The notes beneath the pieces were generated by a model, which saw only the letters and a list, made by a program, of their open reading frames with translations, was not told the origin of the DNA and did no database searches. Below, piece after piece: positions 11,685 through 35,076 of a DNA stretch of 64,000 nt (positions are counted from its first letter, which is position 1; every line of letters begins with the position of its first letter). Both the position numbers and the translations under genes were made by a program. This DNA is from a virus. The stretch lies in the IMG/VR virus record IMGVR_UViG_3300045996_003161, one strand, 5' to 3'.

Positions 11685-12101
11685 ATGACGGGTTCATACG
11701 CAAACATGGTAGATGTGCGTCGCCTAGCTGGTGGTATAGGAAGTATAAGCAACGAAGAGATGGAGGATTATCTTCTATCAGGTAATGTTTTGAGTGAAAG
11801 TTGTACAGGGTTAAAAGATTTATCTACATCAGATAATCGTTATCCATTGATGAAACAGTTAAGCGAGTATTACGCAAGTGCCATTATTCGTGATCATTAC
11901 TCGGACAAGCTTAAAACTGCTAATACACATTTCGAGAGAGCTAAAGAATTATGTCAAGCAATTGTCGCTTTATCCTCTGGGGGAAGTACCTCAGCACGTA
12001 ATGTCTCTCAAGGCTACAAAACGTCACCACTGAATGAAGACGGCGAGTACTTCAGCGACCGCTACATCAGTTCTGGAGTAACAGAAAATATATTTGATTA
12101 G
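11685..12101 (+). CDS. Putative head-tail adaptor/connector protein
   Basis: Size, YA...DVRRL start, helical; next to neck/tail genes; TAGTT motif upstream. Confidence 0.5.
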   Translation: MTGSYANMVDVRRLAGGIGSISNEEMEDYLLSGNVLSESCTGLKDLSTSDNRYPLMKQLSEYYASAIIRDHYSDKLKTANTHFERAKELCQAIVALSSGGSTSARNVSQGYKTSPLNEDGEYFSDRYISSGVTENIFD

Positions 12102-12478
12102 GAAACTATAAGGAATTTCCTATAAAATAACTGAAGATCAAAAACAAAATGCCAATCAGTTTTAGCATTATCCCCATCAAACATTTGTCTAAAATCTAAT
12201 ATTTGAACTAAACTAATTCCTTCACCTACTAGGGCTGATGGATTTTCTATTAATATTCTTTCTATTTCTTTTTGAATTTCCCCTACTTCTTCAGGTTCAT
12301 CTTCACTTAAAGATTTTACATGAATGTGAATTTCAAGAATTTTTGATTCATCAAAATTCGCCGTGGTAGAAGCAAACTCTATGGTAGTTTCAAATGGAAC
12401 TATATTTATTTGGTATTCTGCTCCATGGTCAATATTATCATCGGAAAATCTAATTTCATCAAGCGGTGGAAGAGGCAT
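12098..12478 (-). CDS. Tail terminator/completion-like protein lacking its N-terminal segment; paralog of 20529..21020
   Basis: Shared PP.D, D..D.G..Y.I, EIH...LSE..P, KE..RI, GISL and FR....DN..T..H with 20529..21020. Confidence 0.7.
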   Translation of the reverse strand: MPLPPLDEIRFSDDNIDHGAEYQINIVPFETTIEFASTTANFDESKILEIHIHVKSLSEDEPEEVGEIQKEIERILIENPSALVGEGISLVQILDFRQMFDGDNAKTDWHFVFDLQLFYRKFLIVS

Positions 12479-12514
12479 AAAATGTAAAATGTAAGCTTCG
12501 TATTTGAGTAGTAT

Positions 12515-14644
12515 TTATTGATTAGACCAATTAACCTTAATATAATTTATAAGTAAAGCAATCATTTCTTTATCTGATTTGTCAGGGAACCCACCAGCTA
12601 ATCTTATTATTCCTTCAAGGTGAGTAAGTATTCCTACTATAGTTTCATTTAATCCAACAGTAGGTTCATTAATGCCTCTTGATGTTACATAGATTCTAGA
12701 TAAGACTTCAGCTACTGATACATTTACCAGTATAGGACGGACTGAATCAAATGCTCTTTGTATCGAATCATTTATATTAATGAGATTTTCTTCTATTGAT
12801 CGTGGATATAGTTTAGATCTTATTACCGCTTCTTCAATATCGGTGTCTTCTGATAATGTTCTGAAAGCAGTTAATAATCTATTTAATGTTTCATTAATGG
12901 TTATTGCTGATTCAGAAATTGTACGAACAGTAACAACAAGTCCTGTTAGTGTTTGATTAACATTTACAGTTTGTGATAGGGTACGTGAAGTACTGAAACT
13001 TTTTACTAACGATTCATTAATGGTTGTAGTTTGTGGCAATGAACGAGATGCAGCATACAGTCTGTTTAGGGTTTGATTAATTGTCACACTTTCTTCAATT
13101 GTTCGAACGATTGTTTCACGTGCACCTGTTAGATTTTCACTAATATCAGTGTCTTCTAATAATGTTCGGAAGGTTGCTAAAAGTCTTACTAGTGCTTCAG
13201 TACTTTCTATTGTATTTTCAGTAATCGTACGAACGGTAGAATAAACTTTGGTTAATGTTTCACTAATTGGTACATTCTGAGAAATTGAGCGTATGGAAGT
13301 TAGTAATCTAGTAATATTTTCGCTTATTGGAACGGTTTCGGATGGGGAACGAATTGAACCTAAAATTCTGCTAATTGTTTGATCAACGGTGATTGCAGTT
13401 TCAGTTATAGATCTTAATAATATTATTATTGCTGTAACTGAATCATTAACAGTTACATTTTGATTTATACTACGTATAGTTGAAAAGCTTTTTGCAACTT
13501 CTCCAGTTATACCTTCATTTTCCGTAACGGTACGGATTGCAGCTAAAGTAGTAGCTACGATTTGATTTACATTGATTTGAGTTTCAGATATGGATTTAAT
13601 AAATCCTAAAATTCTTTGTACTGCATCATCTTCAGGAGTATTTTCAGATACTGATCGTAAAGCTCCTAATATTCTAACAACTGTTTGATTAACTGTAATT
13701 GCGTCTTCCGTTATTGAAAGTGGACTAGTTCTTAATCTTGATAAAGTTTCATCAACGGTTAATGCATCTTCAGTTGGGGAACGTAAAGCTCCCAAGACCC
13801 TAATAAGTGTTTGGTTAATTGTAATCGCATCTTCAGTTATTGTTCTTGGTATATGTCTTAATCTTGAAACAGTATCATCAGTTGTAATCGCATCTTCTGT
13901 TATGGAACGTAAGAATCCTGCTCCTGCACCTTTAGCACCAAATAAACTATCTATTACTACTTCAGGGAACTCAACGCAGCTAACGGAATAATTAAATACT
14001 GTTGGGCCGCTGGGGGTATGTGTGCCTGAAACCGAATCATCCTCTTCTACCGCTGTTTCCGATATTGACCCTATAACTCCTAAAATTCTTGCTATCTCTT
14101 CACTTACGCTTATTGATGATTCAGTAATATCACCATTGAAATTTTGTGGTATAATTAATGGAGTCGAAATTTCATCATTTGTACTTCCGAGATTTGTTCC
14201 TACACCGATGTTTTGAGTACCACAAGCACTTGTAGTGAGTGTAAATTCTACTGCGAATCTATCAGTTGATTGTCTACCTACTGGATTTTGTGTGCCATCA
14301 CTCCATGCTATTGTATTTGATTTGACTCCTGTTGTACCACAAGAAACGGAAATAGCACCGGAAGATTTAGATGCTCTTTCAGTTGTTCCATCAGAAGCGT
14401 AACGAATAAGACGAACTAATGTAATATTAAAATTGGTATTTGCTGTTGTAACTCTATACCTCCATGTATAAGTTCCATTATCCCAATCAGTAATTCCTAG
14501 TCCAGCAGTTCCCCAAATTCTAGTTACGCTACCAGCATTAGATCTACCATAAGTTAATGTAGCACCTGTACCTGTTGTAAGTGTCATATCATTTTGGATT
14601 GAACCTACAATATTGGTAGTAGTATCACATTTTATTAAATCCAT
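12515..14644 (-). CDS. Repeat-rich virion fibre protein (about 25 repeats of 20-21 aa) ending in a tail-terminator-like N-terminal segment
   Basis: RS/TI.E..I....T(L/V).R.LG.L repeats; C-terminal IRLAGGFPDKSDKEMIALLINYIKVNW. Confidence 0.75.
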   Translation of the reverse strand: MDLIKCDTTTNIVGSIQNDMTLTTGTGATLTYGRSNAGSVTRIWGTAGLGITDWDNGTYTWRYRVTTANTNFNITLVRLIRYASDGTTERASKSSGAISVSCGTTGVKSNTIAWSDGTQNPVGRQSTDRFAVEFTLTTSACGTQNIGVGTNLGSTNDEISTPLIIPQNFNGDITESSISVSEEIARILGVIGSISETAVEEDDSVSGTHTPSGPTVFNYSVSCVEFPEVVIDSLFGAKGAGAGFLRSITEDAITTDDTVSRLRHIPRTITEDAITINQTLIRVLGALRSPTEDALTVDETLSRLRTSPLSITEDAITVNQTVVRILGALRSVSENTPEDDAVQRILGFIKSISETQINVNQIVATTLAAIRTVTENEGITGEVAKSFSTIRSINQNVTVNDSVTAIIILLRSITETAITVDQTISRILGSIRSPSETVPISENITRLLTSIRSISQNVPISETLTKVYSTVRTITENTIESTEALVRLLATFRTLLEDTDISENLTGARETIVRTIEESVTINQTLNRLYAASRSLPQTTTINESLVKSFSTSRTLSQTVNVNQTLTGLVVTVRTISESAITINETLNRLLTAFRTLSEDTDIEEAVIRSKLYPRSIEENLININDSIQRAFDSVRPILVNVSVAEVLSRIYVTSRGINEPTVGLNETIVGILTHLEGIIRLAGGFPDKSDKEMIALLINYIKVNWSNQ

Positions 14645-15025
14645 TTAGGGCCTCCATGCAACACATTTTTCATGCAATTTTTTGTAGGTTTTGTCGTCAA
14701 GCAATTTTCCAATAAATGTTTTCTTTAAACGTTTAGTATTTTTAGTTTTAATTTTTTCTTTATTAACTCCTCTAAGTTCAACGAAAGTTGTTTCATTTTG
14801 ATTTTCATCCCAATGAGCTTTTACTAGGAAATTTCCAAGTTTTTTATAATCTAAATGAACAAAATCATTACCATCTATTATATGTGAATATAGTTTATCA
14901 TCATAAAAGATCTTGATTGATGTATAAGCTTTATCTTTCGGTATTTTATCAAAGTCTTTTTTGTTTGATATTTTTCCTTCATAAGTTGTTTCATCTTCGT
15001 AAGCGATAAAAATATAATATTCCAT
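14645..15025 (-). CDS. Hypothetical protein between the fibre genes
   Basis: ORF track; tight coupling. Confidence 0.65.
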   Translation of the reverse strand: MEYYIFIAYEDETTYEGKISNKKDFDKIPKDKAYTSIKIFYDDKLYSHIIDGNDFVHLDYKKLGNFLVKAHWDENQNETTFVELRGVNKEKIKTKNTKRLKKTFIGKLLDDKTYKKLHEKCVAWRP

Positions 15026-15027
15026 TA

Positions 15028-17178
15028 CTAGCTACCTCCCTTAAAAGTAAGTAGTGAATAATACCATTTAACATATGCTTCGACTATAATTGCATATGAA
15101 GTTCGAAGTACTTGTAATGTTTGATCGATATCTGTATCTTCAGTTATAGTTTTTGTGATGTTTTGAATTCTTGTTAATGTAGCATCAATTGTAATCGCAT
15201 CTTCTGATATTGTACGCAAAGTTTCTCGAAGTCTTGTTACCGAATCATTTATACTTATTGATGGTTCACTTACAGTTCTTAATGCTCCGAGAATTCTAAC
15301 TAGAGCATCATCAATTGTAATAGTTCCTTCAGTTATCGTTTTAATTAAGCCTTGAATTCTTGTAACACTATCATTTATTGTTATTGCATCTTCAGTTATA
15401 GATACTCCTCCTGTTTGTTTTGTTCCAGATACACTATCATCAGTTGTAATGGCAGTTTCAGCAATAGATCTTAATGCACCAAGAAGTCTAGTTAATGTTT
15501 GGTTAATACTAATTGAGGATTCATTTATTGAACGTAAAGTACCTAAAATTCTTGTAAGTGTTTCACCAGAACTAATCGATGGTTCAGATATCGAACGTAA
15601 TGCTCCTAATATACGGGTTAAGGTTTGATTAACTGTAATCGAGCTTTCAGTAATTGCCCTTGTTGCTCCAAATAGGCGTGTAAGTGTTTGATCAACTGTA
15701 ATTGCTGGTTCAGATATTGAGCGTGGAACAGATCTAAGTCCTGTTAAAGTTTGATCAATTGTGATTGATGTTTCAGAGATTAGTCTTAATGCACCTAATA
15801 ATCGAGTTAAAGTTTCACCATTAGATACAGATGGTTCGTTTACGGGTCTAATTGCAGCTAATAATCGTGATATGGTTTGATCAACTGTAATTGATGTTTC
15901 GGATATTGGCCTATCATAAGATGTTCCTCCTGTTGTTGAATTACCTAATACAATATAAAAATAACGTCTTGCATTTCCAATATTTGTCCAGTTAATAACA
16001 AAACCTGAATTAGTGAAACTATCAATAGTGGCTTCATCATCAATTGTTGAAGATGTTGCAGTAGCATTTGGAGTTACATTAAGATACACAGAATCGGTTT
16101 CATATCTTGTTGTAGTTACGGCATTGGCAGCAGCATCTAAATCAGCGGCTACAGTTACAGCTTGAGTCTTTACAGAGGATTCATCTAGAGAAGCGGCACC
16201 AAATGAAAAAACGTTATCGGCTTGTATTGCTCCACCTGTTGCAGTATCACATCCAAATACTATTACCGCTTTTGCTCCATGAGTCATCTCTGTAGGAACT
16301 TCAATTGTTGTGTTTCCAGTTGTTGCAGGTTCAAGTGCTGAAGTAGTAAAATATTCACCACCTCTTAGAGCAAGATATGATTTTACAGTCGCAACAGAGA
16401 ACGAACTATTTGTAAGTGTGAAACCAGTTGCATCAAGTGAAATAATTGAACAGGTATTAAAAATGGCTCCTGTAGTAGCATTCATATCTGAAGTAATTCC
16501 GGCTCCTGTGTTGATTAGCTGCCAAGTATCCATAGCGGTTCTCCCACCACCTTCAGATACAAAACCAGCTCCACCCCTAAAGTTAATAGTTGAATTGGTA
16601 CAACCAGCAACACCTAATACAAATGATGACCCATCACCTACTGCGGTATTAAATGCAGTATTATGTCCTGATACCAGAAATAACATTTGAGGTTGGAATC
16701 CGGGGCCGGTATATCCTACATTAGTACCATTAGCTGAAATGGTAATATCTCCTACTTTGGCATTTGTTAAGTCACTACCTCCCAGAAAAAGAACATGTAA
16801 TTTAAATGCAGCAGTTGGTGCATTACTCCAGTTAATACGCATCCCATCAGCGTTCCATTGTACAAAACTTGCTCTAGCATCTTCTGTTGTTAATGTTCCT
16901 GTCTGATTAAGTAGGACAATTATGGAATCATTTCGTGCTATACGTGCAGCGTCTGATGTTGCAACTGCATCCTCTGATACATTACAGTAACAACGTGAAT
17001 TGGTTCCATCTGTAAACCCAAAACCAAAAGAGAATCCATTAACAAAAGTATCTACTGCATTATTACCAGCGGTAAACCATACAATAGCGGCTTTGGGTGT
17101 GAAAGATGTTCCTGTTAAGTCTTGATCTCCAGTACTGGTGTTGGCTGTAAATGTTAAAACTTTAGCACTAAATACCAT
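15028..17178 (-). CDS. Virion fibre/adhesin: N-terminal module of three GFxP(K/Q)-type repeats plus about 14 21-aa repeats
   Basis: SFTPKAAIV, GFQPQMLFL; RSISEPSISSGETLTRILGTL-type repeats. Confidence 0.75.
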   Translation of the reverse strand: MVFSAKVLTFTANTSTGDQDLTGTSFTPKAAIVWFTAGNNAVDTFVNGFSFGFGFTDGTNSRCYCNVSEDAVATSDAARIARNDSIIVLLNQTGTLTTEDARASFVQWNADGMRINWSNAPTAAFKLHVLFLGGSDLTNAKVGDITISANGTNVGYTGPGFQPQMLFLVSGHNTAFNTAVGDGSSFVLGVAGCTNSTINFRGGAGFVSEGGGRTAMDTWQLINTGAGITSDMNATTGAIFNTCSIISLDATGFTLTNSSFSVATVKSYLALRGGEYFTTSALEPATTGNTTIEVPTEMTHGAKAVIVFGCDTATGGAIQADNVFSFGAASLDESSVKTQAVTVAADLDAAANAVTTTRYETDSVYLNVTPNATATSSTIDDEATIDSFTNSGFVINWTNIGNARRYFYIVLGNSTTGGTSYDRPISETSITVDQTISRLLAAIRPVNEPSVSNGETLTRLLGALRLISETSITIDQTLTGLRSVPRSISEPAITVDQTLTRLFGATRAITESSITVNQTLTRILGALRSISEPSISSGETLTRILGTLRSINESSISINQTLTRLLGALRSIAETAITTDDSVSGTKQTGGVSITEDAITINDSVTRIQGLIKTITEGTITIDDALVRILGALRTVSEPSISINDSVTRLRETLRTISEDAITIDATLTRIQNITKTITEDTDIDQTLQVLRTSYAIIVEAYVKWYYSLLTFKGGS

Positions 17179-17183
17179 GTTTA

Positions 17184-17474
17184 TTATTCATCCAAAGCGT
17201 TTATGGTAGCATCTTTCTGATGTACTTGATTTATATCATTTTGAAATGCATTTAGATGATCTTTAGCATGTTTTAATGATAAATTATCTACACTTGTAAA
17301 ACTATTTCCGTTATTTACTATTGAGTTACTATTCATATAATTATCGTGTTCTGTTATTACTTCATTTAATCTCGTTAAAGCGTTTGAAATATCGTCACTT
17401 TGGACAAGATTTTTTATATATTTTCGTTGATCTTTGTACCTATAATAATATTCATGTATTATTAGATTAGTCAA
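17184..17474 (-). CDS. Hypothetical protein in the structural module
   Basis: ORF track. Confidence 0.6.
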   Translation of the reverse strand: MTNLIIHEYYYRYKDQRKYIKNLVQSDDISNALTRLNEVITEHDNYMNSNSIVNNGNSFTSVDNLSLKHAKDHLNAFQNDINQVHQKDATINALDE

Positions 17475-18078
17475 GTGTGAACACCAAATGTGCTGTTAGA
17501 GATCCTGTAGTTCCAGTTCCAGAAGTTTGTTGTAACGTAAGGCCATCAAGTCCGCCCGGTCGTAATTGTATTGCAGAACCATTTCTTGAACCTGAGAATA
17601 TTACATATACTCCTGCTGTGTTAACTGAAAAGGTAGCTCCTCCAAGTATATAAGGGGTTACTGGAGCAGGTGTTTGAAATATACTTACTGTGGCTCCAGT
17701 TTTTACGAGTACATCATTTGGGATTGCTGTGTTATTTGGATAATCAGCGGCATATTTCAATATTGAAAGATCTGTTCCTCCAGTTGGAACGGTATTAATA
17801 TATCCTAATTGTAATGTTACTACATGGTTAGCTAAAGTCCTTGGATAAACATATACTTCTTGAATTCTAATTCTCTTTGTTGCTAATCTATTGAAAATAG
17901 AAATAATATTTTTATTTAGTGCAGGAGCAACGTTATCGGCTACTGCTTGATATGTAGGGATATCCGCTGTTAACGTTTCTTGAACATTAATCGATGTACC
18001 TGAGAAATCAGGATGTTGATTAGTTTCAAAAACGACAAGTTTCTTACCGTCTGGTAAATCTATGACACTTTCGGGCAT
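17467..18078 (-). CDS. Putative virion structural protein (beta-rich)
   Basis: T/G/V-rich; TAGTT motif 31 nt upstream. Confidence 0.6.
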   Translation of the reverse strand: MPESVIDLPDGKKLVVFETNQHPDFSGTSINVQETLTADIPTYQAVADNVAPALNKNIISIFNRLATKRIRIQEVYVYPRTLANHVVTLQLGYINTVPTGGTDLSILKYAADYPNNTAIPNDVLVKTGATVSIFQTPAPVTPYILGGATFSVNTAGVYVIFSGSRNGSAIQLRPGGLDGLTLQQTSGTGTTGSLTAHLVFTLD

Positions 18079-18131: not shown

Positions 18132-19190
18132 TTAGAAAACTATCTCTTTCCAATTAGGATCTGTTTTAGTTTTAATCCATTCTTTACGTTTTATACCTCT
18201 GCTATACCAAACGATTATTACTTTGTTATAGCCGTTCATGTTTTCGTATGAACGCATTTTTATTTTTGCGTCACTTTCTAGTATTTTCTTTTCAATTTCA
18301 ATTGCTACAAGTTGATTATTTTCAGCATAAATAATATCTGGAACCGGTTTACGAGTTATAACGTAACTTTCTAGTCCTCTTTCATGTGCGTCACTGATTA
18401 CTATATCCCAATCACATTTTACCGGAATTCCTCTTTTTGATTGACTTATTTTGAGTCTTGTTTCTTCGGATCTTGGTATCCCTATATGTGGTTTGGATTT
18501 TCCTGTAAGAGATTCACTTATTTTCATTTTTACATCTTCTGGGGTTTCTTTACCTATTCTAGATTCATGGTAACATTCTTGTGAACAATACATACCATCT
18601 CCATATTCTTTGACACGTCTATTGTATATCCACCTTAATTGTTGAAATTTCTTTTTACATTTTTCATTTTTACAAATTAATACAACTATGGGTGGGTCAT
18701 GTCCTTGTTCTTGGTATAATCTTTTTCTTGTTTCACTTATTTTCTTTTTATGTTCTTCTGATAATGTTTTATTTTTTCTCCCACGTTGAGGACAAGATTT
18801 ATCTATTTGTGAGTTACCTATTTTTTCTTTTCTCTCCTCAGTAAATTTTACTCCAGTTAAACTACATTTAATTGAACAAAAAATTTCTTTTCGTTTATTT
18901 CTATTTATTCTATGGTTATATTCCCATTGTTTCATTGTAAGTGGTTTATTGCATTGTGAACATTCAACTGTAATGGTTGGTGATAAATTACGTGTACCTT
19001 CATTATATGATTTTTTTAATGCAGTAGTTAATTTATTTCGTGTTTCTTGTGTTGGTTTTTTACCTAATTGGCCACATTCTTTTGAACAAAAAATTCCTCT
19101 TCCATTGTTTCGTTTTAAACGGTAGTTATACCACCATTCATTGATTATTATATCTTTAGAACATGTTGTACATTTTACATTAATTTCCAT
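18132..19190 (-). CDS. Free-standing homing endonuclease-like protein: NUMOD3/Cys repeats plus C-terminal PD-(D/E)xK-like domain
   Basis: SEE(H/T)K.KIS repeats; CSKEC, CSIKC and CSQEC; PDIIY...AIEIEK. Confidence 0.7.
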   Translation of the reverse strand: MEINVKCTTCSKDIIINEWWYNYRLKRNNGRGIFCSKECGQLGKKPTQETRNKLTTALKKSYNEGTRNLSPTITVECSQCNKPLTMKQWEYNHRINRNKRKEIFCSIKCSLTGVKFTEERKEKIGNSQIDKSCPQRGRKNKTLSEEHKKKISETRKRLYQEQGHDPPIVVLICKNEKCKKKFQQLRWIYNRRVKEYGDGMYCSQECYHESRIGKETPEDVKMKISESLTGKSKPHIGIPRSEETRLKISQSKRGIPVKCDWDIVISDAHERGLESYVITRKPVPDIIYAENNQLVAIEIEKKILESDAKIKMRSYENMNGYNKVIIVWYSRGIKRKEWIKTKTDPNWKEIVF

Positions 19191-19277: not shown

Positions 19278-19751
19278 TTATCCCAAAGTCAAAGTCCACG
19301 ACACCTGAAGTGTATCATTTGTTGCAAGCGTGACGGGTGTGAACGTATTTTCATGCGTCATTGTTCCAGCACTTGATGCGTTGAACAATGCAGCTTTTTG
19401 AACAGCAGTATGAGTACCTGATGCGGTAAATGTGATTGCTAATGTTGTAGTATTTGTACCTGCACTGTGAGTTCTTGTTGTAGCTTGTGCACGACCTAAA
19501 CCGTTAGTTGTAATTTCAGAGGTCAGTGTTGTATCTCCTGCCGCTGGTGAACCAGTATCGGTTGTAACAGCTATATAATTTCCGCCTATTGTTCCTGCCG
19601 ATGTGTTAGTATAAACTTGAGCATGGAAAAAGTCTCTTCCACCGTTAGTCAATAAGTTTGGTTTATTTTTGACAATTGTTTCCCACTTGTCAGAATTTGC
19701 TCTTTTAACTAAAACGGTTAAATATCCATGAATATTTGCATCTGGGTACAT
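19278..19751 (-). CDS. Virion tail/collar-type structural protein
   Basis: YIAV.TDTGSPAAGDTTL.SE...ALFNASSAGTM...L...DTLQVSWTL; likely start ATG 19751 just after the upstream stop. Confidence 0.7.
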   Translation of the reverse strand: MYPDANIHGYLTVLVKRANSDKWETIVKNKPNLLTNGGRDFFHAQVYTNTSAGTIGGNYIAVTTDTGSPAAGDTTLTSEITTNGLGRAQATTRTHSAGTNTTTLAITFTASGTHTAVQKAALFNASSAGTMTHENTFTPVTLATNDTLQVSWTLTLG

Positions 19752-19752
19752 C

Positions 19753-19971
19753 TTAGCTGATCTCCCCCTTGCATTCTTCACAAATCGGTGATTTTCCAAA
19801 TGGCAAATTATCAAAGGTTACTTCCTTTTTGCACATGGCACATGGTTTTGCACCAACTTCAACTATTCCTGTTTCTTTGGCATGTTTTTCCCATTCTTCG
19901 GGATCTGTAGTTTCAAAGGAGTATTCTTCTCTATAATCAATGAATTTTCCTCCACCTTCTATAAACGACAT
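19753..19971 (-). CDS. Small Zn-finger protein
   Basis: CAMC...CEEC; TAGTT motif 31 nt upstream. Confidence 0.7.
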   Translation of the reverse strand: MSFIEGGGKFIDYREEYSFETTDPEEWEKHAKETGIVEVGAKPCAMCKKEVTFDNLPFGKSPICEECKGEIS

Positions 19972-20053: not shown

Positions 20054-20560
20054 ATGCCTAAAGGAAAGCCGGATCTATATAAAAGACAATTTAAAGGTAA
20101 ATTTAGAAAATGTAAATGTGGATGTGGTGAAATAATTCCATATTTAAATAGTGCTAATAGGTTTATCAAATATAAATTAAGTCATAATTTAAAAAAATTT
20201 CATTTTAAAGGGGGTCAAGATAGTCCAAGATGGAAAGGTGGTAAAATTACTATGCCTGATGGTTATGTTAGAATATTAGTTCCAAATAATTATTATACAG
20301 ATCATTCTAGTAGATTCATTTATAAAAGTGGTTATATGATGGAACATCGTTTAGTGTGGGAACAATATCATAATGTTTGTTTACTTTCGTGGGCTCATGT
20401 TCATCATAAGAATGGTATTAAATATGATAATAAAATTGAAAATTTAGAAGCGATGATGGAAGGAAAACATGCTATCATCCATTTAATAGAAAATAATTTT
20501 CATATTGGAAAGAGAGATTATTCTAAATCTAAGAAGGCATTACGAATTTCGTTAAAATGA
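20054..20560 (+). CDS. Free-standing HNH homing endonuclease
   Basis: CKCGCG N-terminus; EHRLVWEQ; HVHHKNGIKYDNKIENLE. Confidence 0.9.
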   Translation: MPKGKPDLYKRQFKGKFRKCKCGCGEIIPYLNSANRFIKYKLSHNLKKFHFKGGQDSPRWKGGKITMPDGYVRILVPNNYYTDHSSRFIYKSGYMMEHRLVWEQYHNVCLLSWAHVHHKNGIKYDNKIENLEAMMEGKHAIIHLIENNFHIGKRDYSKSKKALRISLK

Positions 20561-21020
20561 CTTGTATTGTCATCATTGAATGAAATATAGTACTTGTATT
20601 ATCCTCTTCATCGATTCGCCTAAAATTAATTGGAACAATAAGTGATATACCAAAAGCCGGAAAACCTCCAACTGATGTAGCGATTATTCTTGATACTTCT
20701 TTGTTAAGATTTGTCATGGTTTGAGGATATTGTTCGCTTAATTCCCTACAGAAAGTATGAATTTCTATAAATAATGAATGATCCCATACTTTATTACCCA
20801 GAGCTGCTGATCCCATAATATCTGCATTAAGTAGCACGGATATTACATAATCATGTCCATTATCATACCAATCAGTGTTAAAGTGTACATTCTTGAATTC
20901 ATTTGGATCATCTATAGGAGGATTATTTATCGCCCAAGAAGATTTAAGTTTATCAATAATTATTTTAAGTACTTGATTATTAGAAATGTTAGGTTTATTA
21001 CCCCCTAAAACTATAGGCAT
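20529..21020 (-). CDS. Tail terminator/completion-like protein (intact copy)
   Basis: Size and position next to the tail tube; paralogy with the split copy at 12098-12613. Confidence 0.65.
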   Translation of the reverse strand: MPIVLGGNKPNISNNQVLKIIIDKLKSSWAINNPPIDDPNEFKNVHFNTDWYDNGHDYVISVLLNADIMGSAALGNKVWDHSLFIEIHTFCRELSEQYPQTMTNLNKEVSRIIATSVGGFPAFGISLIVPINFRRIDEEDNTSTIFHSMMTIQVILTKFVMPS

Positions 21021-21042: not shown

Positions 21043-21696
21043 CTAATAGGAAGTATTTTCAAACTTTAGTAAAAAATTATTGTGAGCGTTTCTTATTATC
21101 CAATTTTCTTCTGTACAAAGATTTCTATTATGCATAATTTTTATTCCTGAAACTGTAATATGGAAAGAATCTGGAGCAAATATACCTATTTGATTTGTTT
21201 GTGTTTTTTTTATTGGAATAGCATGTTTATTTTGGTAATATGTAAATTCCCATGGATTATGATAAACTAAAGGAAAATCTACATATGCTTCGGGGGAATC
21301 ATCTCGTTGGAGTTTAAGTTTATAGAGATTTTTGTGTTTGAAATCATAACTCTTTATTCTTTCATATGAAAGCAGAAATTTTTCCCAATCTCCTTCAATA
21401 TATTCATCTGAATCAATAATGATTAAGTTATCTGTTTTGCAAAGGTTTTTAACTAACTTACGTTTGTCTACTTCATAATCATTGGGTCTATCAATAATTT
21501 TGACTTTATCAAAGTTTTGTAGATATTCTCTGCTACCGTCAGTTGAAAGTTGATTAAATTCTGTTCCCATTTTATGTTTTCCGTCAACTGCGATTACTTC
21601 ATCTACATAGTCTATATATGTAGGTAGACTACGTTGTAAATTCCTCAAACAATTAAAGAACAATAATTCTACTGTGAATCCGCTCTTTTTTGCCAT
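21043..21696 (-). CDS. GT2-like glycosyltransferase
   Basis: L.RSL..Y..YVDEVIAVDG...S.DGS..Y; IIIDSDEY (DxD). Confidence 0.8.
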   Translation of the reverse strand: MAKKSGFTVELLFFNCLRNLQRSLPTYIDYVDEVIAVDGKHKMGTEFNQLSTDGSREYLQNFDKVKIIDRPNDYEVDKRKLVKNLCKTDNLIIIDSDEYIEGDWEKFLLSYERIKSYDFKHKNLYKLKLQRDDSPEAYVDFPLVYHNPWEFTYYQNKHAIPIKKTQTNQIGIFAPDSFHITVSGIKIMHNRNLCTEENWIIRNAHNNFLLKFENTSY

Positions 21697-21992: not shown

Positions 21993-22895
21993 ATGGTAGA
22001 ATATATTCCAACAGGCTCGTGGGAATACGTAAAACAACCTCAATTCGTTGAGGAAGTCGTATACGGAACGTTGCCTCTCGCTAATACAACTTTTACATCT
22101 TGTGGACTTATCACAGAGGTTACTCGTGAGTTCACTATAGAAAACGAACAATATAGAATTCTTGGTTCAAGGGATATTCATACACAGATTAAATTGGGAG
22201 AACAGCACACTTTTTCATTTAAATACCGACCACAAAACATGGTACTTGCAAAGTATGGAACTGATTTGCCTGTAGGAACAGGAACAAATGCTAAGAGTAT
22301 CAGTATTCTTGTCTCAAAAAATGTTGATGGAGTAGAGAAATTCAAAGTCTTTACTGGTGTAAAAACCGCATCAATTACAATTGAAATTACAAGAGCTTCT
22401 GGTGTTAATGTTACTCAAAACTTCAAGTGTAAGAATATTACTGAATGGGGAACTGCTCCTGTATTTACAGGAACTACAACTTATGCAACATTAAGTGCCG
22501 CTGATCCATGGACTGGAATTTCATCCGGTGTAGATCCATTGACTATTGATGCTGTTGCTTATGATACACCAAGATTCAGTGTTACTGTTGATCAAGGTTT
22601 ACAAGAACTGAAACCAAATGGCCAATTAACACTTAAATACTTGTTCGCAACCAACAGAACAATTACAGTTGACTTTGATACATGGGTTAAAGATACAGTA
22701 TTGAATGCTGCACAGGCTGCTTATACAGCTCAGGCCGCAGAGTACATGTTGAATAACAGTACGCAAGATACTAAGCTGGTCTTTACATCACTCAAGTTCG
22801 ACTCAGCTTCTGAAGGTGATACTGCTGGTGGAGCCGAATTTACAATGGCTAAATTCAGTGGTACAGCAAAAACAATGACGATAACAGTCGTCTAA
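21993..22895 (+). CDS. Tail tube (major tail) protein
   Basis: EE..YGT N-terminus, beta-rich 300 aa, upstream of chaperone and tape measure. Confidence 0.85.
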   Translation: MVEYIPTGSWEYVKQPQFVEEVVYGTLPLANTTFTSCGLITEVTREFTIENEQYRILGSRDIHTQIKLGEQHTFSFKYRPQNMVLAKYGTDLPVGTGTNAKSISILVSKNVDGVEKFKVFTGVKTASITIEITRASGVNVTQNFKCKNITEWGTAPVFTGTTTYATLSAADPWTGISSGVDPLTIDAVAYDTPRFSVTVDQGLQELKPNGQLTLKYLFATNRTITVDFDTWVKDTVLNAAQAAYTAQAAEYMLNNSTQDTKLVFTSLKFDSASEGDTAGGAEFTMAKFSGTAKTMTITVV

Positions 22896-23976: not shown

Positions 23977-24023
23977 TGATTTTTATACTTCTTTTCTGTT
24001 TATAACCTTTTCCCCCTTTATAT

Positions 24024-34242: not shown

Positions 34243-35076
34243 TTATATTCCTCTTTTATTTAAATTTTTAATATATGTACAAATATTATTATCTTGTTTA
34301 TTTATATATTGTAACATCATTTCACCTTGGATTTTCTTGGTTACTAAATATGGAATAAAATGTGGAAGTAATGTAACAATATTATCAATTTTTCTTGTTT
34401 TTAGATCGTAAATTGGATTCCAATTATTATTAGATTTGTTGATTTTTACAATAGATAGAGTTGCTAAAGGTTTTAATAATTCCCTAATTGATTTTACTAA
34501 ATATGAATTTGTATTGACTAAGAATGATAAAATTGGGGTATAAGTATTTCTTCTTCGATCAAACCCAAAACATATACTTCCTTCAGAATCTATAATACCC
34601 GAAATAAAACTTTTTTGTGTTTCAGTTAAGTTTTTTATTTTTATTATATCATTAATATCTAAATAATTATCTTTATTTTTTAATATATTTATACTCTTTC
34701 CATTCATTTTTTTACATTCTTGATGATTTTTTTCACACTCTATTCCCTTGCACACATTTATAAGATTTTCAATTCTTGATTTTTTTGATATTAAATATGG
34801 ATTAATAATTTCTGATAATCTAATTAAATCATTTATATTATATATCTCTATACTATGTCTGGGTTTATGAAGTGAAGATCTAGATCGTTTAGATACATTA
34901 TAAGTATATTTATAGTTATCCTTATTAAGAATATTAATAATATAATTTATAGTTTTTTCAGATGTATTAATAATTGATATACACTTTCTATACCATATTC
35001 CTTTATCTCGTCCAATATAAATTGATCCATCTCCCTCAATAAACCCAGCTAAATACGCAGCTTCAGTATCTTTCAA
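34243..35076 (-). CDS. Free-standing double LAGLIDADG homing endonuclease
   Basis: YLAGFIEGDGSI and FISGIIDSEGSI. Confidence 0.9.
   Translation of the reverse strand: MKDTEAAYLAGFIEGDGSIYIGRDKGIWYRKCISIINTSEKTINYIINILNKDNYKYTYNVSKRSRSSLHKPRHSIEIYNINDLIRLSEIINPYLISKKSRIENLINVCKGIECEKNHQECKKMNGKSINILKNKDNYLDINDIIKIKNLTETQKSFISGIIDSEGSICFGFDRRRNTYTPILSFLVNTNSYLVKSIRELLKPLATLSIVKINKSNNNWNPIYDLKTRKIDNIVTLLPHFIPYLVTKKIQGEMMLQYINKQDNNICTYIKNLNKRGI

Follow-up and report, generated by a model that had tools for sequence, protein, structure and literature searches.

Tail terminators are among the best-conserved parts of long-tailed viruses and contractile injection systems, and they are known as single-chain ring proteins whose rings carry the helices on the outer face. 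In chaperone-usher pili, an Ig-like pilin without its last strand is completed by the N-terminal extension of the next subunit, and in Aeromonas phage Aeh1 the ribonucleotide reductase gene is split by a homing endonuclease gene, with halves that reassemble non-covalently. Here we analysed the 64-kb stretch IMGVR_UViG_3300045996_003161 (hereafter the window, meaning this whole stretch of DNA), a genome segment of a long-tailed virus as seen from its tube and tape-measure-sized open reading frames (ORFs). Besides a full-length tail-terminator paralog (P0001), the window encodes a second terminator copy that is divided over two adjacent genes, with one part at the C-terminus of a 709-amino-acid fibre (the tag) and the remainder in a small downstream ORF (the stub). 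The features concerned are the following.

12515-14644, minus strand: 709-amino-acid fibre gene, with an N-terminal head of ~170 residues, ~25 repeats of 20-21 residues and the C-terminal tag of 31 residues
12518-12610, minus strand: the tag, the last 31 residues of the fibre, corresponding to a short beta-strand and helix alpha1 of the terminator fold
12515-12517, minus strand: TAA that ends the fibre gene, in the same frame as the stub ORF that follows
12479-12514, minus strand: spacer of 36 nt, in frame and stop-free, containing AAATAC-N21-ATG
12098-12478, minus strand: the stub, a terminator core of 126 amino acids that starts with MPLPP and is related to P0001 by BLASTP
20529-21020, minus strand: P0001, full-length tail-terminator paralog of 163 amino acids, assigned with AlphaFold2 (AF2), Foldseek and VIA-align

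The fibre ends in IKVNWSNQ and the TAA stop, which is followed by 12 stop-free codons in the same frame and then by the ATG of the stub, just as an earlier note made from the sequence alone had described. According to the secondary structure of the models, the stub keeps the four long strands and helix alpha2 of the fold and is without the first strand and helix alpha1, so that, of the two helices of the terminator fold, only one is encoded by the stub ORF itself. A tryptophan that is nearly invariant in the family, conserved in at least 90% of its 58 members, sits on the fibre chain, inside the tag.

The described tail terminators (lambda gpU, T5 p142, SPP1 gp17, HFTV1 and phage Chi) resemble the window pair in the four-strand sheet and two helices of its predicted model, and differ from it in that the second copy in the window lies on two polypeptides, with alpha1 on the 709-amino-acid fibre, and is encoded after the fibre genes, away from the tube gene. 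Literature searches of limited scope found no described terminator that is split or fibre-bearing. As in Aeh1, one domain would come from two adjacent ORFs whose products associate after translation, in a genome rich in homing endonuclease genes and at a junction that accepts ORFs in the relatives L004 and L007. Unlike in Aeh1, there is no endonuclease at the window junction, the ORFs inserted in relatives match no endonuclease family, and the split is apparently more than tolerated, having acquired a role in modular fibre attachment. As in chaperone-usher pili, an incomplete fold would be completed by the terminal segment of another chain, holding a fibre together, but the donor in the window would be a C-terminal segment made of a strand and an alpha-helix, the fold is a different one, no chaperone or usher takes part, and the context is a virion; the likeness to donor-strand complementation is an analogy of mechanism only.

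In T5 p142, a four-strand sheet lines the lumen with two flanking helices, and the N-terminus joins the inter-subunit contacts (PMC11784142). The tube/terminator fold is reused and duplicated in virions (Cardarelli et al., 2010, as cited in PMC11784142), and the PVC16 terminator has a duplicated terminator-like domain. In these cases, too, a duplicated terminator-type domain is recruited to a second structural job in the same particle; they are single-chain, whereas the duplicated domain of the window is divided over two genes, one part of it being a putative fibre anchor. Fibres near the terminator or neck include the T4 fibritin whiskers on gp13/gp14 and those associated with collar proteins around the terminators of Goslar, Milano and Pa193 (bioRxiv 10.64898/2026.04.21.720040). 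These attach via collar proteins or N-terminal domains outside complete rings and none supplies part of the terminator fold, unlike the window fibre, which would be anchored by its C-terminus.

The earlier note had proposed that the fibre end aligns to the start of P0001 and the stub to the rest, and both parts of this proposal were borne out. The stub is confirmed as a paralog of P0001 residues 34-163 (BLASTP, 29% identity, E 3e-18). The tag is too short for BLAST, and its ungapped alignment to the start of P0001 has 8 identities. We compared four fibre ends with the N-termini of the P0001 family and obtained an ungapped profile score of 44.4, which none of 100,000 column shuffles reached (average -28, sd 11; z = 6.5). 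A six-frame scan of the window with the family N-terminal profile covered 127,816 positions, and its best non-self match was 12518-12610, with a score of 45.5 and the next match at 22; in the reverse scan, made with the relatives' fibre ends only, the N-terminus of P0001 was the best non-self match (40 vs 22). Profile alignment with hhalign of five fibre ends against the 58-sequence family profile, which contains no fibre ends, gave a probability of 85% and E 5.8e-6 over 31 columns, and paired the last 32 residues of the fibre with residues 1-32 of P0001. In the relative L009, a readthrough construct matches P0001 over its full length (80 bits), and its junction W-GNS-stop-M-PLPP corresponds to W-AINN-PP of P0001 without insertion. 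These results confirm that the tag is homologous to the terminator N-terminus missing from the stub, with a match far beyond chance.

Several other candidates were tried and rejected in these comparisons. P0002 (14645-15025, 126 amino acids), which also follows a fibre, is unrelated to terminators (hhalign probability 1.6%), the 178-amino-acid protein of 19278-19814 is not a paralog, the 716-amino-acid fibre has no tag, and P0045 (1549 amino acids), found in the representative search, is a spurious repeat match. P0021 (131 amino acids) and P0061 (127 amino acids) looked like further splits and are actually full-length genes with miscalled starts. Their database calls start too late, and the full ORFs (L016:470-865 and L017:1307-1690) include the N-terminal strand and helix.

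Structure prediction placed P0001 among the tail terminators. Its AF2 model, based on an alignment of 58 homologs from an exhaustive profile search, had a mean predicted local distance difference test (pLDDT) score of 93.3 and a predicted template modelling (pTM) score of 0.87, with a short strand, a helix at residues 14-27, four long strands and a second helix at 100-114, in this order. Foldseek returned tail terminators on top (phage Chi, HFTV1, lambda gpU and T5 p142). In VIA-align, the model matched T5 p142 with Z 14.0 (root-mean-square deviation [rmsd] 2.7 over 138 residues), the neck chain of P74-26 with Z 13.9, the tail chain of HFTV1 and the neck chain of phage Chi each with Z 12.9, and lambda gpU with Z 12.7. 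The solved terminator chains start at residue 10-12 of the P0001 model, and helix alpha1 therefore belongs to the canonical fold.

For the split copy, we modelled a tethered construct made of the last 70 residues of the fibre, the 12-residue spacer and the stub, with the TAA translated as Q. The tag was predicted with pLDDT 94-96 as a strand and helix like those of P0001, the spacer with pLDDT 58 and the stub with pLDDT 84-98. This model matched T5 p142 with Z 15.1 (rmsd 2.5 over 141 residues) and lambda gpU with Z 12.8; residues 1-156 of the T5 p142 chain cover residues 49-206 of the model, and the match begins inside the tag. Both predicted models, P0001 and tag plus stub, have the terminator fold of a four-stranded antiparallel sheet and two flanking helices, which shows that tag and stub are compatible, as modelled, with one such fold.

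In L017 and L019, a distant member of the P0001 family immediately precedes a tube gene of family PF18906; given this position and the terminator fold matches, we take the P0001 sequence family to be a genuine terminator family. P0001 is probably the working terminator of the virus. Its gene lies ~1 kb from the tube gene in a divergent operon; the split pair is encoded behind the fibre genes, 9.5 kb from the tube gene. Neither P0001 nor the other 57 members matched the curated terminator families (PF06141, PF11367, PF13554, PF23818 and others) at threshold, and the best Pfam terminator match, of the stub to PF11367 (E 0.099, 13 bits), fell below the cut-off of 24.5. We conclude that the P0001 family is a separate sequence family that shares the predicted terminator fold and has no Pfam model. 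In PHROGs and Pfam, P0001 had no family and the stub, fibre and neighbouring genes gave nothing useful; a search of the PDB by sequence profile returned noise only, and atlas searches with the fibre and stub returned only neighbours labelled viral hypothetical or terminator-like, without a structure. A phage GenBank collection had no match at the DNA or protein level, and pattern scans of IMG/VR, JGI metagenome contigs and GTDB genomes (with the stub, P0001, the stub alignment, the fused protein described below and the tube protein) gave no relatives.

One clade of terminators (P0037 at L019:1214-1777, P0042, P0053, P0054, P0069 and P0082), also encoded directly upstream of a tube gene, has an N-terminal extension of ~25 residues resembling one fibre repeat unit. 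Evidently, the N-terminus of the terminator fold tolerates outward extensions.

The earlier note had called for a search of related genomes for split and fused states. This search found the split, always in the loop after alpha1, in five lineages with stub homologs of 125-128 amino acids, and a fused form in L013/L014. The junctions are arranged as follows.

Window type (L010-L012): stub 90-95% identical to that of the window, with the same TAA and the same 36-nt spacer
L005/L006: stub 64% identical to that of the window, 50-nt gap, different frame
L004: same stub as L005, 434-nt gap with a 130-amino-acid ORF on the opposite strand
L007/L008: stub ~50% identical, preceded by a different fibre of more than 854 amino acids and then a 146-amino-acid signal-peptide ORF
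L009: stub ~51% identical, TAA directly abutting the ATG, same frame
L015: stub 36% identical (as P0088), TAA, one codon, then ATG, same frame

The same junction is present, identical, in contigs from four further soil runs belonging to four studies, and TAA is also the main stop in the window (28 of its 37 ORFs). Given that the split is conserved in relatives and in other studies, and that TAA is the main window stop, the TAA is neither an error nor a recent mutation, and it does not reflect an altered genetic code. A sense codon at 12515-12517 in close relatives, which the earlier note had considered, was not observed, and every relative retained the TAA.

The fibre/stub junction is a spot of gene insertion. 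The inserted ORFs are at L004:3379-3771, minus strand (130 amino acids), and L007:2591-3031, plus strand (146 amino acids). The L007 product contains a (PDKPAK)n linker as well as a signal peptide. Neither ORF had a Pfam or PHROG match, to an endonuclease family or to any other. Splitting of the terminator copy by a homing endonuclease gene was considered and rejected, with no endonuclease between the halves and only the 36-nt spacer in the window; an earlier endonuclease at the junction, later lost, is possible.

The fibre ends of L005, L007, L009 and L015 keep the motif AGG.P.K[ST]..E....LI..[IL]K..W. Between lineages, identity was 48-61% in the tag and 50-64% in the stub, and 20-40% in the adjoining fibre body. 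Among close relatives (dS ~0.3), the ratio of nonsynonymous to synonymous substitution rates (dN/dS) was 0.04-0.08 for the tag in most pairs, as calculated from very few substitutions; the stub had values of 0.08-0.15 and the fibre body of ~0.3. Purifying selection acts strongly on tag and stub alike, and the two change at the same pace. L007 and L009 have stubs that are 83% identical and fibres of different repeat types, with the tag alone shared, indicating that fibres were exchanged while the tag was kept. This contrast is evidence for fibre exchange by recombination.

A promoter-like motif suggests how the stub may be expressed. The sequence ATACTACTC in the spacer (12506-12514, minus strand) begins 36 nt upstream of the stub ATG, and the motif (W)AATACTNCYY is found at the following four sites, each of which starts 36-39 nt before the ATG of the gene named.

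12506-12514, minus strand: motif site upstream of the stub
21048-21056, minus strand: motif site upstream of P0001
21956-21964, plus strand: motif site upstream of the tube gene
23985-23993, plus strand: motif site upstream of ORF 24024

Relatives have the motif too, L004/L005 in front of the stub and L002 in front of both the terminator and the tube gene, and the pattern was counted 21 times vs 9.4 expected. It probably represents a promoter class for tail genes, and the copy in the spacer would then be a promoter by which the stub is made together with the tail genes. In L009 and L015, where stop and ATG abut, translational coupling is likely. A second motif, ATAGTTATC, was found ~35 nt upstream of other structural genes (17467-18078, 19753-19971, 25425 and 38701).

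How the split pair arose can be read in part from a tree and from the fused form. In a maximum-likelihood tree of the terminator core (126 columns), the split stubs formed a clade (support 96/82) that was sister (97/95) to a full-length clade containing P0001, which indicates that the second copy arose by duplication within this virus group, as the earlier note had proposed for the terminator gene. That note further held that the duplicate was fused to a fibre and then split. A fused form does exist, in a distant relative: P0038 (L013/L014), a hit of the representative search whose ORF runs off the contig, has the repeat type of the window fibre (E 1e-12) leading directly into a complete terminator domain. 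These repeats of the 709-amino-acid fibre also occur in the 716-amino-acid fibre at 15028-17178. A single-chain fused architecture therefore exists. One BLAST segment between the window fibre and P0038 extends through a shared NWS, and the window ORF ends two residues later. The fused protein nonetheless falls elsewhere in the core tree, its core not being sister to the split clade (approximately unbiased [AU] test, p = 0.02, for a grouping of fused and split forms that was named after the tree was seen), and the known fused protein is not the direct ancestor of the split pair. Fusion followed by a split would be the simplest reading of the in-frame relics, with the order of events being our inference. 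A word-based search with residues 660-848 of the 848-amino-acid readthrough construct for fused proteins of 470-1480 amino acids found nothing. Window ORF 11685-12101 has no homology to the ORF that follows the fused gene in L013.

We propose that the fibre docks non-covalently and thereby completes the terminator fold of the stub, and that tag and stub serve as plug and socket in an exchangeable attachment, and we put the probability of this reading at roughly 0.68. Fibre and stub would be made as separate products that then associate non-covalently, the C-terminal strand and helix of the fibre packing on the open face of the stub, and the fibre would become anchored by its C-terminus to a terminator-like ring or hub. 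Known terminator rings have their helices on the outer face, and a fibre held in this way would accordingly point outwards, away from the ring or hub. As plug and socket, tag and stub would allow fibre bodies to be swapped while the attachment is kept. Here we infer the physical complementation of the stub by the tag, the formation of a ring by stub plus tag, and the position of the pair in the virion. We suggest more tentatively, and at somewhat less than even odds, that the stub folds or forms a ring only when fibre tails supply alpha1, which would couple fibre loading to ring assembly and make any tagged fibre swappable by recombination.

Some observations weigh against docking of the tag on the stub. 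The fused core stands apart from the split clade, as described above. Three of the four lineages with adjacent halves have them in frame, which fits descent from a fused gene and leaves room for occasional readthrough. The split pair lies 8-9 kb from the tube gene, off the canonical terminator locus. Finally, the chain given to AF2 was tethered and full-length homologs were in the alignment, so that the placement of the tag was partly built in.

The alternative that fares best is that the tag binds another partner, for example the ring of the full-length terminator, the tube or, in a domain-swapped ring, the subunit next to it, and that the stub works alone as a minimal ring or adaptor. Such a swap is conceivable from the inter-subunit contacts of the T5 terminator N-terminus (PMC11784142), yet tag and stub are always neighbouring genes in the five lineages and evolve at the same rate, together they make up exactly one terminator fold with no overlap or gap (L009 junction vs P0001), and one face of the sheet would be uncovered without alpha1. 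We regard this alternative as unlikely, at odds of about one in six.

Docking in trans is also favoured over readthrough or recoding, in which the working product would be a fusion of ~850 amino acids, as the earlier note had envisaged, and the separate products would be by-products. In its favour, the window, L009 and L015 have both ORFs in one frame, the 12-codon spacer of the window is stop-free and a naturally fused homolog exists (L013/L014). A stop-free frame of 36 nt is, however, not unusual in AT-rich sequence, L005/L006 are out of frame with a 50-nt gap, and a whole ORF separates the halves in L004 and L007; the split is maintained independently of reading frame, and readthrough cannot be the mechanism that is conserved. 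Moreover, the stop is TAA in all five lineages, with no leaky stop context, no RNA structure was predicted at the junction or spacer (fold z +1.6, less structured than shuffles), the spacer of close relatives accepts changes by which a readthrough peptide would have Pro or Ser in place of His, and the stub has a conserved ATG and its own promoter-like motif. We hold readthrough to be improbable as the way in which the working product is made, and low-level readthrough may occur in the in-frame lineages.

Decay can be dismissed as very improbable: this reading would have a once-fused gene broken by a nonsense mutation, its 3' part now degenerating, or a stop that is an artefact of sequencing or assembly, and the in-frame layout does look like a nonsense mutation, but the stop is identical in contigs of several independent soil studies, the split is kept across lineages whose stubs are only 36-64% identical, the stub has a dN/dS of 0.08-0.15 at dS ~0.3, and its start codon and MPLPP start are conserved.

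The window has a G+C content of ~33%, and the public sequencing runs that contain this stretch are soil metagenomes from several studies, with no RNA run listed among them; the virus is uncultured. The tube gene diverges from the minus-strand module that contains the terminator, fibres and stub, and downstream of it follow a 2099-amino-acid tape-measure-sized ORF and then large modular proteins. In order, the minus-strand module encodes proteins of 92, 217, 163 (P0001), 72, 178, 203 and 96 amino acids, the 716-amino-acid fibre, P0002 (126 amino acids), the 709-amino-acid fibre and the 126-amino-acid stub. Other features of this region and of the window are listed here.

15028-17178: 716-amino-acid fibre gene, with repeats common to the 709-amino-acid fibre
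18132-19190: NUMOD3 homing endonuclease gene
20054-20560, plus strand: HNH endonuclease ORF (PF13392)
21993-22895, plus strand: tail tube gene (PF18906 Phage_tube_2, Pfam, E 4.2e-8)
34243-35076: LAGLIDADG homing endonuclease gene

The HNH ORF converges on the terminator gene P0001 and overlaps its 3' end by 32 nt, a layout also present in L001 and one ENA contig. The 716-amino-acid fibre ends in FKGGS, its last codons contain a GGGAGG ribosome-binding site, and the ATG of P0002 lies two bases past its stop (14645-15028, minus strand). P0002 has a Lys-rich tail and no known family; L004-L006 conserve it between their fibres, and it may assist the fibre as a chaperone or be its partner. Operon-head genes have short AT-rich leaders without a Shine-Dalgarno sequence, some of them with boxes like the B recognition element (BRE) and TATA box (GAAAC then TTTATATT), and genes within operons carry GGAGG. 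These leader types, the HFTV1 match and the origin from soil jointly hint at an archaeal host, perhaps among low-GC soil archaea.

A conserved and selected terminator with one secondary-structure layer on a fibre would be new. If our reading is true, fold complementation would serve as a virion attachment device, with a previously undescribed C-terminal anchoring of a fibre in a tailed virus. Fibre exchange would then follow a simple rule that spares the particle core, namely to keep the 31-residue tag, and the locus would represent a compact natural tag-and-socket pair. These results also add a predicted fold and a role to a protein family without a Pfam model, and help the annotation of uncultured soil viruses, possibly archaeal ones.

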